Below, piece after piece: positions 3,007 to 8,305 of a stretch of 8,305 bases of DNA. The position numbers were made by a program, and so were the translations under genes. Position 1 is the stretch's first letter. The number at the start of each line of letters is the position of its first letter. This stretch comes from a virus. Lineage: Duplodnaviria > Heunggongvirae > Uroviricota > Caudoviricetes. Location: the IMG/VR virus record IMGVR_UViG_2711768023_000009, one strand, 5' to 3'. The notes beneath the pieces were generated by a model. The model searched no databases and was not told the origin of the DNA. It saw nothing but the letters and a program-made list of their open reading frames with translations.

Positions 3007-3222
3007 ATGTATCAGATGGAAAAAATATCAACAGGCATTGCCTACGGCACCTCCGCCGGCAGTGCCGGCTACTGGTTTTTGCAGTGGTTGGATCAGGTCA
3101 GTCCATCACAGTGGGCTGCGATTGGTGTGCTGGGAAGTCTGCTTCTGGGGCTTCTGACTTATCTGACAAATCTGTATTTCAAAATAAGAGAAGACAAGCG
3201 TAAGGCTGCGAGAGGTGAATAA
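3007..3222 (+). CDS. S: Holin/antiholin, phage-21 S-like pinholin, 71 aa with dual-start motif
   Basis: 71-aa [74 protein letters not shown], near-identical from recollection to the phage 21 S pinholin. Met1 and Met4 give the 71/68-aa dual-start arrangement, and there are two hydrophobic helices and a charged C-terminus. The stop overlaps the next start (TAATG). Confidence 0.9.
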
Positions 3223-3595
3223 TGTCGCCATCATTACGCAAGGCTGTTGCAGCTGCTATTGGTGGTGGGGCTGTTGCTATAGCATCTGTGTTAATCACTG
3301 GCCCAGGTGGTAACGATGGTCTGGAAGGTGTCAGCTACATACCATACAAAGATATCATTGGTGTATGGACTGTATGTCACGGACACACCGGAAAAGACAT
3401 CATGCTCGGTAAAACGTATACCGAAGCAGAATGCAAAGCCCTCCTGAATAAAGACCTTGCCACTGTCGCCAGACAAATTAACCCGTACATCAAAGTCGAT
3501 ATACCGGAAACAACGCGCGGCGCTCTTTACTCGTTCGTTTACAACGTGGGCGCTGGCAATTTCAGAACATCGACGCTTCTTCGCAAAATAAACCA
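3222..3595 (+). CDS. R: SAR endolysin (phage-21 R-like lysozyme), 3' end lost in gap
   Basis: N-terminus [30 protein letters not shown] is a Gly/Ala-rich signal-anchor-release domain, followed by lysozyme core motifs ([10 protein letters not shown]...[11 protein letters not shown]...). Matches the phage 21 SAR endolysin from memory. Start is translationally coupled to the holin. Truncated by the N run at 3596. Confidence 0.85.
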
Positions 3596-3925
3596 NNNNN
3601 NNNNNNNNNNNNNNNNNNNNNNNNNNNNNNNNNNNNNNNNNNNNNNNNNNNNNNNNNNNNNNNNNNNNNNNNNNNNNNNNNNNNNNNNNNNNNNNNNNNN
3701 NNNNNNNNNNNNNNNNNNNNNNNNNNNNNNNNNNNNNNNNNNNNNNNNNNNNNNNNNNNNNNNNNNNNNNNNNNNNNNNNNNNNNNNNNNNNNNNNNNNN
3801 NNNNNNNNNNNNNNNNNNNNNNNNNNNNNNNNNNNNNNNNNNNNNNNNNNNNNNNNNNNNNNNNNNNNNNNNNNNNNNNNNNNNNNNNNNNNNNNNNNNN
3901 NNNNNNNNNNNNNNNNNNNNNNNNN
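3596..3925. other. Assembly gap (330 N); hides endolysin 3' end and the starts of Rz and Rz1
   Basis: Run of N. Confidence 0.99.
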
Positions 3926-4102
3926 GCAGTCTGTCAGTCAGTGCGTGAAGCCACCACCGCCTCCGGCGTGGATAATGCAACCAGCCCCCGACTGGCAGAC
4001 ACCGCTGAACGGGATTATTTCACCCTCAGAGAGCGGCTGATGACGATGCAGATGCAACTGGAAGGGGCACAGGAGTATATCCGCACTCAGTGCATTAAGT
4101 AG
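3926..4102 (+). CDS. Rz: Rz i-spanin, C-terminal part (5' end in gap)
   Basis: Frame ending at TAG 4100-4102 translates to ...AVCQSVREATTASGVDNATSPRLADTAERDYFTLRERLMTMQMQLEGAQEYIRTQCIK, closely matching the lambda Rz C-terminus as I recall it. Confidence 0.85.
   Translation, partial: AVCQSVREATTASGVDNATSPRLADTAERDYFTLRERLMTMQMQLEGAQEYIRTQCIK
3927..4040 (+). CDS. Rz1: Rz1 o-spanin, C-terminal part, embedded in the +1 frame of Rz (5' end in gap)
   Basis: Translation QSVSQCVKPPPPPAWIMQPAPDWQTPLNGIISPSESG is almost identical to the lambda Rz1 C-terminus, including the proline-rich segment. The lipobox cysteine would lie in the gap. Confidence 0.8.
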   Translation, partial: QSVSQCVKPPPPPAWIMQPAPDWQTPLNGIISPSESG

Positions 4103-4144: not shown

Positions 4145-4495
4145 ATGCCATCACTAATCCCACGTGCCTGCCGTAAGCGTGGATGTGCAGGTACAACCAC
4201 AGACAGTTCGGGTTACTGCGATAAACATCGCGGTGAAGGCTGGGTGCAGCACCAGCGCGGACTGAGCCGCCACCAGCGTGGCTATGGCTCAAAATGGACG
4301 GTGATTCGTGCCCGTATTCTGAAGCGCGATAAAGGTCTGTGTCAGTTGTGTCTGCGTGTCGGTGTGGTGAGCGAGGCGAAAACCGTCGACCACATCATCC
4401 CGAAAGCGCATGGCGGAACAGACGCAGACAGCAACCTGCAGAGTCTGTGCTGGCCCTGCCATAAAGCGAAAACAGCGCGCGAACGAATCCGGTGA
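4145..4495 (+). CDS. Phage HNH endonuclease (terminase-associated, HK97 gp74-like), 116 aa
   Basis: HNH motif DHIIPKAHGG...N...LCWPCH plus an N-terminal Cys cluster (CRKRGCAG...YCDKH). Shine-Dalgarno gaggt 6 nt upstream of the ATG. Sits immediately upstream of the terminase genes, as in HK97-type packaging modules. Confidence 0.85.
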   Translation: MPSLIPRACRKRGCAGTTTDSSGYCDKHRGEGWVQHQRGLSRHQRGYGSKWTVIRARILKRDKGLCQLCLRVGVVSEAKTVDHIIPKAHGGTDADSNLQSLCWPCHKAKTARERIR

Positions 4496-4616
4496 TAATT
4501 ATTCTCACTTGTAGGGAGGGGCGGGGCAAATCCCTGTGACCTGACGTCTTCCGGACTGCCCGCCCCATCGTTTTTTTATACCCGCGAAAAATGAAATTTA
4601 ACCAGGAGTGCCGCAT
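4496..4616. promoter_or_regulatory. Putative cos (packaging) site region between the HNH and small terminase genes
   Basis: In HK97-like phages cos lies between the HNH gene and terS. The region carries a GC-rich imperfect dyad ggggcggggc (4518-4527) / gcccgcccc (4558-4566) followed by ttttttt, then an A/T-rich block (cgaaaaatgaaattta). The segment aggggcggggcaaatcc loosely resembles the lambda cosN core GGGCGGCGACCT. Exact cleavage site is not determinable from sequence. Confidence 0.3.
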
Positions 4617-5111
4617 ATGGCTGGAACGGCGGGGCGTTCCGGGCGTCGCCCCAAGCCAACGGCGCGCAAGGCGCTGGCCGGAAACCCCGGCAAGCGAGCC
4701 CTGAACAAAGATGAACCTGTTTTTACGCCCATCAAAGGTGTTGAGCCACCAGAGTGGTTCGCTGAAGAAGATCTCCCTCTCGCCACGATCATGTGGCAAC
4801 TGACAACCAAAGAACTCTGCGGTCAGGGCCTGCTGTGCGTGACTGACCTGGCGGTACTTGAGCGGTGGTGCGTGGCCTATGAGTTCTGGCGACGTGCCGT
4901 GAAAAATATTGCCATACAGGGCAACACCATCACCGGTGCAATGGGCGGCAGGGTCAAAAATCCGGAGCTGACCGCCAAAAAAGAACAGGAGTCCGAGATG
5001 AGCAGCACGGGGGCAATGCTCGGACTCGACCCCAGCAGCCGCCAGCGTCTGATTGGCCTGGCGGGGCAGAAGAAAGCCACTAACCCGTTTCTGAAAATTA
5101 TCGAATCATGA
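4617..5111 (+). CDS. Terminase small subunit (P27/HK97-type)
   Basis: ATG at 4617 is preceded by aggag (4604-4608); the ORF track's 4608 start is an in-frame GTG. The stop overlaps the large terminase start (ATGA at 5108-5111), indicating translational coupling. Size (about 164 aa) and position fit HK97/P27-family small terminases. Confidence 0.8.
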
Positions 5112-6841
5112 GCCGGAAATCTTACCCCAACGTAAATGCTGCAAATCAGTATGCCCGGGATGTCGTGCGCGGAAAGATTGTTGCCTGCCAGTTTGTGATT
5201 CAGGCCTGCCAGCGCCATCTTGATGACCTGATGGCGGAAAAAAGTAAGTCGTTTCGTTACCGCTTCGACAAGGACCTGGCTGAACGGGCCGCGAAATTTA
5301 TTCAGCTGTTGCCGCACACCAAGGGGGAGTGGGCATTCAAACGGATGCCCATCACGCTGGAGCCGTGGCAGCTATTTGTGATCTGCTGTGCGTTTGGCTG
5401 GGTCAATAAAGGCACCCGGTTGCGCCGCTTCCGGGAGGTGTACACCGAAATCCCCCGTAAGAACGGCAAATCAGCAATCTCTGCCGGTGTTGCCCTGTAT
5501 TGTTTTGCCTGTGATAACGAGTTTGGCGCGGAAGTGTATTCCGGTGCCACGACAGAGAAACAGGCGTGGGAAGTCTTTCGCCCGGCGCGACTGATGTGTA
5601 AACGCACACCCATGCTGACGGAAGCGTTCGGGATTGAGGTTAACGCCTCAAACATGAACCGTCCGGAGGATGGCGCGCGGTTTGAACCGCTGATCGGCAA
5701 CCCAGGTGATGGTTCATCACCCCACTGTGCCGTGGTTGATGAATATCACGAGCATGCCACCGATGCGCTTTATACCACAATGCTTACCGGGATGGGGGCG
5801 CGACGTCAGCCACTGATGTGGGCCATCACCACCGCCGGGTACAACATTGAGGGGCCGTGCTACGACAAGCGGCGGGAAGTCATCGAGATGCTCAACGGCT
5901 CGGTGCCTAACGATGAACTGTTCGGGATCATCTATACCGTTGATGAAGGTGACGACTGGACCGGCCCGCAGGTGCTGGAAAAAGCCAATCCAAATATTGG
6001 CGTGTCGGTTTATCGCGAATTTTTGTTAAGTCAGCAGCAGCGTGCGAAAAATAACGCCCGTCTGGCAAACGTCTTTAAAACAAAACACCTCAATATCTGG
6101 GTGTCGGCGCGTTCGGCGTATTTCAACTTGGTGAGCTGGCAGAGCTGCGAGGATAAATCACTGACCCTTGAGCAGTTCGAGGGGCAGCCGTGCATTCTGG
6201 CCTTTGACCTGGCGCGTAAGCTGGATATGAACAGCATGGCGCGACTTTATACCCGCGAGATTGACGGTAAAACGCATTACTACAGTGTGGCCCCGCGTTT
6301 CTGGGTACCGTATGACACGGTGTACAGCGTCGAGAAAAATGAAGATCGACGGACAGCCGAACGCTTTCAGAAATGGGTGGAAATGGGCGTTCTGACCGTT
6401 ACCGATGGTGCGGAGGTGGATTATCGCTACATCCTCGAGGAGGCCAAAGCGGCGAACAAAATCAGCCCGGTCAGTGAGTCACCCATCGACCCCTTCGGGG
6501 CGACCGGGTTGTCACATGACCTTGCTGATGAAGACCTGAATCCCGTCACTATCGTCCAGAACTTCACCAATATGTCCGATCCGATGAAAGAGCTGGAAGC
6601 AGCGATTGAATCGGGACGTTTTCATCATGACGGCAATCCCATCATGACCTGGTGTATCGGCAACGTGGTCGGCAAAAACATGCCGGGTAACGATGATGTG
6701 GTGAAACCCGTCAAAGAGCAGGCGGAAAACAAAATCGATGGTGCAGTTGCGCTGATTATGGCGGTTGGCAGAGCCATGCTGTACGAGAAAGAAGACACGC
6801 TGTCTGACCACATTGAGTCCTACGGGATCCGCTCGCTTTAA
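5108..6841 (+). CDS. Terminase large subunit (HK97 family), 577 aa
   Basis: Long ORF directly coupled to the small terminase gene. The sequence is typical of HK97-family large terminases, with an N-terminal ATPase region and a C-terminal nuclease region (e.g. [22 protein letters not shown]). Called from recalled family similarity. Confidence 0.92.
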
Positions 6842-6852
6842 CTGAGGTAATT

Positions 6853-7035
6853 ATGATCATGCTGATTCTCGCGCCTCTGGTGGGCGTGCTGGGTGCGCTT
6901 TTGCTGGCGTATGGTGCCTGGCTGATTTATCCCCCGGCGGGTTTTGTTGTTGCCGGGGCGCTGTGCCTGTTCTGGTCGTGGCTGGTGGCGCGATATCTCG
7001 ACCGTACACGGCAGTCTGTCGGCGGAGGTAAATAG
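6853..7035 (+). CDS. Hypothetical small membrane protein (60 aa, two predicted transmembrane helices)
   Basis: [63 protein letters not shown]. Shine-Dalgarno gaggt at 6844-6848. Codon usage resembles neighbouring genes. It fills the terminase-portal intergenic space, and its 3' end carries the GGAGGT ribosome-binding site for the portal start at 7035. Confidence 0.45.
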
Positions 7036-8191
7036 TGTTCTTTTCGGGATTATTTCAACGAAAAAGCGATGTGCCGGTGACCACGCCAGCAGAACTGCTG
7101 ATGCTATCGGGCTGTCATACGACACCTATACCGGAAAGCGGATCAGTAGCCAGCGGGCCATGCGCCTGACGGCGGTCTATTCTTGCGTCAGGGTGCTGGC
7201 AGAGTCTGTTGGTATGCTGCCCTGCAGTCTCTACAAAATCAGCGGTACCCTGAAAACACGGGCGGTGGATGAACGACTGCATAAGTTGGTTTCGGCAAAA
7301 CCTAATGGCTACATGACACCGCAGGAATTCTGGGAGCTGGTTATTGTCTGCCTGTGTCTACGGGGGAATTTTTACGCCTACAAGGTAAAGGCACTGGGAG
7401 AAGTGGTGGAGCTTCTTCCGATAGATCCGGGCTGTGTGGAACCGAAGCTGAACAGCCAGTGGCAGCCGGTTTATCAGGTGACGTTTCCGGATGGTTCCGT
7501 GGATGTGTTGACCCAGAATGAAATCTGGCATGTGCGCACCCTGACGCTGGATGGACTTGTCGGGCTGAATCCCATTGCGTATGCGCGTGAGGCCATTTCA
7601 CTGGCAGCGGCAACCGAGGAGCACGGTGCCAGGTTGTTTAGTAATGGTGCGGTGACATCCGGTGTGTTGCGTACGGAACAAAAGCTCACGCCGGATGCTT
7701 ACGAGCGTCTGAAGAAAGATTTTGAGGAGTGTCACACGGGGCTTGGCAATGCTCACCGCCCGATGATTCTGGAAATGGGGCTGGACTGGAAGTCGATGGC
7801 GCTGAACGCCGAGGACAGTCAGTTCCTGGAAACCCGCAAGTTTCAGCTGGAAGAAATCTGTCGTCTGTTCCGGGTGCCGTTGCACATGGTGCAGAACACC
7901 GATCGCGCCACCTTCAACAATATCGAAGAGCTGGGGCTGGGATTTATCAACTATTCACTGGTGCCGTATCTGACCCGCATCGAACAGCGGATCAACACCG
8001 GACTGGTACGAAAAAGTAAGCAGGGCGTTTATTACGCCAAATTTAACGCCGGGGCGTTACTGCGCGGGGATATGAAGTCCCGTTTTGAAGCCTACGCCAC
8101 CGGGATCAACTGGGGAATTTACTCTTCCAATGACTGCCGCGACCTGGAAGATATGAATCCGCGTCCCGGTGGTGTAATGCCGATCAGTTAA
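7035..8191 (+). CDS. Portal protein (HK97 family) with an apparent one-base frameshift near the 5' end (possible pseudogene or sequencing error)
   Basis: GTG at 7035 is preceded by a strong Shine-Dalgarno (ggaggt 7024-7029, 5-nt spacer) and opens a portal-like N-terminus MFFSGLFQRKSDVPVTTPAELLMLSG..., which hits TGA at 7167-7169. The rest of the portal (…YDTYTGKRISSQRAMRLTAVYSCVRVLAESVGMLPCSLYK… to stop 8189-8191) is in the -1 frame. One extra G in the run at 7109-7111 would fuse them into a 385-aa protein. The ORF track's 6944 start overlaps the small ORF and translates to implausible Cys/Arg/Trp-rich sequence. Confidence 0.8.
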
Positions 8192-8224
8192 GGATCAGTT
8201 GACCGATCCAGTGGCTGTGTAAGA

Positions 8225-8259
8225 ATCCGGAAACGCTCACTTGTTTCCGGATTTTTTTA
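8225..8259 (+). terminator. Rho-independent terminator downstream of the portal gene
   Basis: 10-bp stem atccggaaac (8225-8234) / gtttccggat (8243-8252), 8-nt loop, followed by ttttttt (8253-8259). Oriented for the + strand only. Confidence 0.6.
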
Positions 8260-8305
8260 TGCACATTGGACAGGCTCTTGATCTGGTATCCCGTTACGAT
8301 TCTCT

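Follow-up and report, generated by a model that had tools for sequence, protein, structure and literature searches.

A predicted YmfR-family membrane hairpin encoded between the large terminase and portal genes of a P27/e14-type prophage

In the HK97 layout of phage head genes the portal gene comes directly after the gene for the large terminase subunit (TerL), and in HK97 itself the stop codon of the one overlaps the start codon of the other (TGATG). The question raised by the locus described here is why a gene for a small hydrophobic protein should stand between the two. The locus lies in a stretch of 8,305 nucleotides (nt) from a Caudoviricetes record (IMG/VR record IMGVR_UViG_2711768023_000009), which is called the window below, and consists of a 60-codon open reading frame (ORF) at positions 6853-7035 on the + strand, stop included. 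An earlier note, made from the sequence alone, had described the ORF as an unexpected gene for a membrane protein, perhaps a moron, or else as a stretch without coding function that is open by chance. The window comes from the late region of an enterobacterial prophage, a defective one of P27/e14 type, and the ORF is one of its genuine late genes. It is the orthologue of Escherichia coli K-12 YmfR (ymfR, b1150), of phiP27 L37 and of ST64B Sb3, which together fall in PHROG 502. The earlier interpretation therefore holds for a real membrane-protein gene, while the gene is not unexpected and its reading as a moron is not supported.

The assignment to the YmfR family is based on a profile match, on the form of the protein, which is a two-helix YPPAG hairpin of ~60 amino acids, and on its place between TerL and portal. 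The window protein matches phrog_502 ('membrane protein') with E=2.8e-28 over profile positions 3-57 of 58, and it is 96.7% identical to the YmfR of the K-12 prophage e14 and 98.3% identical to phiP27 L37, annotated as a 'putative integral membrane protein'. YmfR, phiP27 L37, ST64B Sb3 and SfII gp03 all have the same length of 60 amino acids, the same TerL/portal position and the same TAGTG overlap with portal as the window ORF; unlike these loci, the window has an adjoining portal gene that is frameshifted and interrupted by the insertion sequence (IS) IS4. In the host species the locus is common, with a 1-kb probe around the ORF matching 1608 of 5426 complete E. coli genomes (~30%), and in the matched genomes RefSeq annotates ymfR with 'terminase large subunit' on one side and 'phage portal protein' on the other. 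The gene is thus already known and catalogued, as K-12 ymfR, phiP27 L37 and PHROG 502, and cannot be called unexpected. The identity of the gene and the anatomy of its protein are held here with very high confidence.

The length of the ORF by itself says little, because the window holds 57 ORFs of at least 40 amino acids and a single ORF of 60 codons is within chance; it is judged real because it is conserved. In divergent pairs, the ratio of nonsynonymous to synonymous substitution rates (dN/dS, by the Nei-Gojobori method, NG86) is 0.13-0.45 for YmfR, and it is lower in the neighbouring genes (0.01-0.12 for TerL and 0.05-0.10 for portal). These ratios indicate purifying selection on YmfR, weaker than that on TerL or portal. 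Over 32 distinct 60-codon alleles the summed nucleotide diversity at the first, second and third codon positions is 9.7/7.8/14.0, and both other sense frames are closed in 32 of 32 alleles. An antisense frame is often open, and there the diversity is highest at its own codon position 1.

Conservation also extends to gene order. To make the sample independent of the small ORF, 80 IMG/VR loci were fetched by portal profile, and the synteny set as a whole comprised 104 sequences, i.e., 103 loci and the window. A family match was found in 79 of the 104, and in 79 of these 79 it had the TerL stop immediately on one side and the portal start immediately on the other. This synteny reaches portals of ~30% identity and phages of alpha-, beta- and gamma-proteobacteria. 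Conservation at the same position with synonymous-biased change, which had been proposed as a check on the ORF, is therefore observed. A wider profile search over 1.84 billion representatives (E<=1e-3, clusters at 50% identity) returned 407 clusters, nearly all of 50-70 amino acids. Seven distant members were looked up, which come from Salinicola, Gilliamella, a Massilia-like contig and several metagenomes and align with the window protein at ~30-50% identity, and all seven are ordered TerL, small ORF, portal, even as the genes around them vary (TerS of Terminase_4 or Terminase_2 type, protease of S49 or S78 type). By tblastn, relatives occur in Klebsiella phages, Azospirillum phage Cd and Pseudomonas phage VW-6S as well.

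The distribution of the ORF among portal relatives is uneven. All sampled loci with portals at least 72% identical to that of phiP27 have it, and it is present in many portal relatives at 30-60% identity. At portal identities of 38-70%, six loci (L064, L068, L072, L074, L077, L082) have no ORF at this site, and five (L067, L069, L070, L076, L100) carry a divergent two-helix ORF of the sister family phrog_7105. The proteins of this sister family (Pseudomonas phage VW-6S, L069, L076) are likewise two-helix proteins, of 54-69 amino acids, encoded at the same TerL/portal site with overlapping stops and starts. Their profile has weak similarity to phrog_502, but their polar N-terminus is longer, another sequence stands in place of the YPPAG turn, and they are only marginally alignable to the YmfR family. 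Its absence from HK97 and from some portal relatives makes the ORF accessory to the head module.

Labels given to homologues in public records are inconsistent. In the records of vB_EcoM-720R4, -689R6 and -606R7, Salmonella phage As1 and SfIV, 'head-tail joining protein W', 'hypothetical protein' and 'membrane protein' are found, and the SfIV copy is unannotated. The first of these labels can be traced to gene position, as the head-tail adaptor gpW of lambda (Ad1, 68 amino acids) is also encoded by a small gene between terminase A and portal B, and this shared position has led several records to name the YmfR homologue after it. The identity was rejected: hhalign gives a probability of 1.4%, gpW is soluble, with a grand average of hydropathy (GRAVY) of -0.49 as against +1.16 for the 60-residue window protein, and the gpW family is absent among the Pfam matches of the window and of the family members. 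The W label is an annotation error. Neither Pfam nor NCBIfam has a family above threshold for YmfR, the sub-threshold noise being the transmembrane-hairpin families DUF1206, DUF2244 and TctB; a profile search of the PDB gave nothing meaningful (best E=0.087, Lgt), and the Foldseek matches in BFVD, none of which reached E<=0.001, were all to small phage proteins that are uncharacterised, a two-helix hairpin being too simple for a fold search.

At both of its ends the ORF is joined to its neighbours by translation signals. The TerL gene (5108-6841, + strand; Pfam TerL_ATPase 8.2e-26 and TerL_nuclease 4.2e-33) ends with TAA at 6839-6841 (+ strand), and the ATG of the ORF follows at 6853, 11 nt past that stop. 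The ribosome-binding site that had been claimed for the ORF is there: a Shine-Dalgarno sequence read as GAGG at 6844-6847 on the + strand, 5 nt before the ATG. At the same spot (C)TGAGG or CGAGG occurs in 14 of 14 homologous loci examined, close and mid-distance ones, in which the 5' junction consists of TAA, 11-12 nt with GAGG, and then ATG, and the 3' junction reads ...GGAGGTAAATAGTG or the equivalents TAATG and TGATG. In the window the ORF ends with TAG at 7033-7035, and the GTG start of the HK97-family portal gene (from 7035, + strand; Phage_portal 3.3e-107; TIGR01537) shares one base with this stop (TAGTG). The portal Shine-Dalgarno sequence, GGAGG at 7024-7028 (+ strand), is located inside the last codons of the ORF, 6 nt before the GTG, and this embedding accounts for the invariant C-terminal Gly-Gly of the protein. 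In 25 diverse loci compared, a purine-rich GGAGG, GGGGG or AAGGAGG is at this position in most, and the overlap of ORF stop and portal start is mostly 1 or 4 nt.

The portal start itself is well-supported. The true 5' end of the portal gene (MFFSGLFQRK..., 7035-7097, + strand) begins at the GTG that agrees with the annotated starts in phiP27, e14 and SfII, and the portal N-terminus is kept across loci. A portal start lying farther upstream had been named as something that could exclude the ORF; the true start overlaps only its stop codon, so the ORF stands, between a TerL and a portal gene as was first described. In the distant family members looked up, the ORF start overlaps or abuts the TerL stop, and in loci lacking the ORF the TerL stop overlaps the portal start directly, as in HK97. 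Taken together, these signals link three late cistrons, TerL, YmfR in the middle and portal, in a translationally coupled chain. No diagnostic difference separates the portal N-termini of loci that have the small ORF from those of loci that lack it, both kinds starting with a similar hydrophobic or amphipathic motif, and a stable RNA structure at either junction is not supported, the folding energies being those of shuffled sequences (z = -0.08 and -0.38). The SfII record (L104, NC_021857.1) marks a 'putative rho-independent terminator' inside the ORF, at 2370-2419, which corresponds to 6861-6910 of the window; the equivalent RNA of the window is no more stable than its shuffled versions (z=-0.08), and the annotation is probably a false positive.

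If the ORF is chained to both neighbours, which of them does it accompany through evolution? Comparison of the window with phiP27 (L001) gives a synonymous divergence (dS) of 1.38 in the 3' part of TerL, 0.04 in the ORF and 0.22 in the 5' part of portal, while comparison with e14 (L002) gives 0.13, 0 and 1.19, respectively. The ORF is near-identical between diverged flanks, which places recombination joints on both sides of it. Over 630 pairs drawn from 36 non-redundant loci, the identity of YmfR is correlated with that of portal (r=0.73) far more strongly than with that of TerL (r=0.43). The partial Mantel correlation of YmfR with portal given TerL is r=0.66 (p=0.0005), and that of YmfR with TerL given portal is r=0.16 (p=0.024). 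In 37 of the pairs YmfR identity is 90% or more; among these, portal identity is never below 85%, while TerL identity is below 50% in 11. A single locus illustrates the pattern: in Citrobacter sp. Awk 4 (L014, 3825-5319) TerL matches that of the window over its last 54 residues only, YmfR and portal are kept, and the arrangement resembles a joint left by recombination within the 3' end of terL. On the evidence of these sequence comparisons, the ORF travels genetically with portal rather than with TerL and is the first gene of the portal/head module.

The protein that this gene encodes is predicted to be almost wholly membrane-embedded. Hydropathy (Kyte-Doolittle) finds two hydrophobic stretches with a dip at residues 23-27, and AlphaFold2, from a 43-sequence alignment, models a helical hairpin (residues 2-25 and 27-56; mean predicted local distance difference test score 79). 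The two hydrophobic helices first described from the sequence are thus borne out by both approaches, and the basic C-terminal tail is there as well. Transmembrane helix 1, placed by the model and by hydropathy, covers codons 2-25 (6856-6927, + strand) and carries the conserved G11, G14, G21 and W23. The Y-P-P-A-G turn at codons 26-30 (6928-6942, + strand), where the modelled helix breaks at residue 26, is predicted to be periplasmic and is the most conserved motif of the family. Transmembrane helix 2 occupies codons 31-46 (6943-6990, + strand; G35, C38, W41-S42-W43), and the tail, predicted to be cytoplasmic, codons 47-60 (6991-7032, + strand), with the basic residues R47, R51, R53 and K60 in the window protein and an ending in GG[K/E/D].

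Invariant or near-invariant residues in close homologues are G11, G14, G21, W23, Y26-P-P-A-G30, G35, C38 and W41-S-W43, and distant members retain the motif G-x2-G...[YF]GAW-x-[IV]-[YF]-x-P-A-G-[FY]-I-x-x-G. The C-terminal tail is the least conserved segment of the family, apart from the terminal GG[E/D/K]. Charge gives the orientation. The turn has no Lys or Arg in 25 close homologues and nearly none in 43 diverse ones; on average the family has 2.7 of these residues in the C-terminal tail, none in the turn and 0-0.7 at the N-terminus, and N-terminally extended distant members carry Lys or Arg in the extension. By the positive-inside rule, this distribution places both termini in the cytoplasm and the YPPAG turn in the periplasm. 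The topology check that had been called for therefore predicts a hairpin of two tightly packed transmembrane helices, with N-terminus and C-terminus inside and a short basic tail.

What, then, might such a hairpin do for a phage? Position-locked synteny, translational coupling to portal and co-divergence with portal point to a function tied to a portal step at the inner membrane. YmfR would be made late, in amounts tied to those of TerL and portal, and would insert into the inner membrane, where its hairpin may serve a step of the portal or procapsid, for example by holding a new portal or an assembly initiator at the membrane. A precedent is found in T4, in which the membrane-bound gp20 portal initiator depends on the phage protein gp40 (PMC9958956). 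YmfR would act like this gp40-dependent system, as a phage factor that works with the portal at the inner membrane, with no relationship in sequence implied; the analogy is functional only, and T4 differs from the YmfR phages in its layout of head genes. The mechanism, which leans on this analogy, is offered tentatively, as less probable than not. The broader explanation, of a late N-in/C-in hairpin that belongs to the portal/head module, seems to us about equally likely to be right or wrong when taken as a whole. We searched the literature for small membrane proteins between terminase and portal and found nothing relevant.

Several observations weigh against a portal-linked function. The tail is the only part able to reach the portal and is the least conserved part of the protein, while the conserved residues, in the membrane and the periplasmic turn, fit a membrane-intrinsic or host-directed action equally well or better. 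Assembly proceeds without YmfR in HK97 itself and in portal relatives at 58-70% identity, and the procapsids of HK97-type phages are not known to assemble at a membrane. The co-divergence with portal could merely reflect where module boundaries fall, and the window and e14 share YmfR at 97% identity, yet their portals stand at a dS of ~1.2.

The alternative that survives best is that YmfR is a host-membrane effector of the moron type, whose hairpin blocks DNA entry by superinfecting phages or alters the envelope, as likened to HK97 gp15, T4 Imm and P22 SieA. HK97 gp15, a small inner-membrane superinfection-exclusion moron (PMC3594210), is like YmfR in that both are small inner-membrane proteins encoded within the late structural operon of an HK97-type phage. 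The concentration of conservation on the membrane-embedded part and periplasmic turn, the patchy presence of the gene among portal relatives, and its intact state in decayed prophages (e14 and the window, with its broken portal) would also suit an effector. PHROGs places phrog_502 in the category 'moron, auxiliary metabolic gene and host takeover', but this category appears to be based solely on the label 'membrane protein'.

Morons are defined by a promoter and terminator of their own and by deviant GC content (PMC3594210), and none of these three hallmarks is found at the window ORF. On the + strand no promoter-like site was found within 500 nt upstream, the nearest being a 9/12 match ~500 nt upstream inside terL, in a scan for the consensus only that weak or non-sigma-70 promoters inside terL could escape. 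No + strand terminator-like site was found before 7351, which lies inside the portal gene, and the counts of promoter-like and terminator-like sites equal the shuffled expectation. GC content at third codon positions is 0.67 in YmfR, as compared with 0.65 in TerL and 0.65 in portal, and sliding-window GC at the ORF (0.56-0.57) is within the range of the flanks (0.51-0.60). HK97 gp15 comes with a promoter and a terminator, deviates in GC content and has a lineage-restricted spread, whereas YmfR has none of these features. Rather, YmfR is translationally chained to the late genes, and its fixed position over divergence down to ~30% identity (it is kept at portal identities of 30-40%), together with its co-divergence with portal, is unlike the behavior of horizontally scattered morons.

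A PADLOC search likewise does not favor an effector: seven of eight family members had no match to any family at E<=1, and one had a noise-level match. In a study that integrated DNA at ymfR in MG1655 as a neutral site, deletion of the gene is reported to have no phenotype (PMC9145139), phage exclusion not being among the traits assayed. Of the functions that had been suggested for a moron here, namely superinfection exclusion, a toxin and lysis timing, none gained positive evidence. Another study, which counts on the side of the head-module reading, found ymfR induced with other e14 genes under LP-600 treatment, a response that the authors linked also to SOS (PMC10012262). The part of the literature mentioning ymfR that was covered here consists of e14 gene and deletion lists, an expression table and the integration site, with no functional study among these. 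Thus, YmfR is not a typical moron and probably not a host-directed one at all, and an effector of this kind is an unlikely, if still the strongest, rival to a function in the portal/head module.

A second alternative is that YmfR affects lysis timing, either as a two-helix oligomer resembling class II holins or as a modulator of the pinholin of the phage. Class II holins have two transmembrane helices, N-in/C-in topology and a short charged C-terminal tail, as is predicted for YmfR; small residues in heptad spacing (G11, G14, G21; G35, C38, S42) would suit helix packing, and expression is late. The window allele also has Met codons at positions 1 and 3. A dual start of the holin/antiholin kind was considered for this pair and rejected, there being no charge difference between the two products and no conservation of the pair (most relatives begin MIL or MFL). 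The gene is not beside the endolysin, and the phage already has a P21-type holin and a lysozyme at 3007-4040. No holin family rises above threshold, Phage_holin_3_6 appearing in 3 of 43 members at E>=0.09, and the position is fixed to portal even where lysis cassettes differ. A lysis factor is accordingly improbable.

Still less probable is that the ORF is mainly a translational coupler, which delivers ribosomes from terL to portal and carries the portal Shine-Dalgarno sequence, with a peptide that matters little. The overlaps of stops and starts at both ends, the Shine-Dalgarno sequence within the last codons with its consequence for the terminal Gly-Gly, and a dN/dS above that of the neighbouring genes would all follow from such a role. 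However, dN/dS is well below 1, and the length of ~60 amino acids, the hairpin and the motif G-x2-G...YGAW-x-I-Y-P-P-A-G...G...WS persist to ~30% identity. A coupler is also unnecessary, because HK97 and other relatives couple TerL to portal directly with no spacer ORF. The weakest alternative, a chance ORF in a non-coding spacer, can appeal to the abundance of short ORFs in the window, but is already refuted by purifying selection, the bias of diversity toward third codon positions, hundreds of homologous clusters and a conserved Shine-Dalgarno sequence, and has next to no probability left.

The portal gene of the window is damaged at two places. A three-way alignment with phiP27 and K-12 e14 reveals a 1-nt deletion (CTGGC to CTGC at 7096-7097) that shifts the portal frame, and as a result the first 21 codons (from GTG 7035) are out of frame with the body of the gene (7097-8174, + strand; Phage_portal 3.3e-107), which is in the frame of ORF 6944..8191. 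The long ORF 6944..8191 is an artefact of this deletion, which is either a real pseudogene mutation or a sequencing error. Similarity to intact portals, by tblastn (residues 1-379) and megablast, stops at ~8174, or about residue 379 of 413, where the end of an IS4 element (8175-8305) truncates the gene. This end is 100% identical to annotated IS4 copies and occurs at up to 32 places per E. coli genome. Because portal is also truncated by the IS4 insertion, the prophage is defective.

Upstream, the window contains an IS110-family transposase on the minus strand (DEDD_Tnp_IS110 and Transposase_20, 1085-2281), a P21-type holin S (PF04971, 3007-3222), a Phage_lysozyme gene (3222-4040), an HNH endonuclease (4145-4495) and the small terminase TerS of Terminase_4 type (4608-5111). 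The lysis cassette is of P21 type, and the N-terminus of its lysozyme is hydrophobic and, by eye, resembles a signal-anchor-release sequence. The position of the HNH endonuclease directly 5' of TerS resembles HNH-dependent cos packaging systems. A direct repeat of 300 nt, with two identical copies at 627-926 and 1054-1353 (spacing 427) beside N-masked runs in the region 501-2281, looks like a tandem partial duplication of an IS end or an assembly artefact near the IS110 transposase.

Individual records of related prophages also deserve comment. The TerL of the window is 98% identical to those of three loci (L004, L006, L007). One of these, a metagenome-assembled genome labelled 'Bacillota bacterium' (L004), and OR844959.1 ('Enterococcus phage Efm 3-10') are 94-99% identical to the prophage region of the window, and these Gram-positive labels most likely reflect contamination or mis-binning. 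In a Shigella flexneri prophage (L012, CP182557.1, 4001-4216) the ORF is frameshifted and reads to 71 codons, while TerL and portal still align full-length, which suggests decay or dispensability of the ORF in that prophage.

What is added here to a gene already on record is the breadth of its family, the strict synteny of TerL, small ORF and portal with embedded translation signals, and the linkage to portal, some of which may be published already. The cistron is old, locked in its place in the head module, linked to portal and not a typical moron, and as ymfR it sits in the best-studied bacterium. That hairpins of the YmfR family are dedicated membrane anchors or nucleators of the portal is doubtful; if true, the start of procapsid assembly, or else the packaging motor, would as in T4 be tied to the membrane in a large clade of HK97-type phages of Proteobacteria, and the small gene would be the first gene of the head module and not an add-on. 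The finding is useful either way, though no major surprise. Ultimately, it bears on a possible membrane-bound step in the head assembly or packaging of HK97-type phages, and if there is no such step, YmfR would be a widespread small membrane effector.

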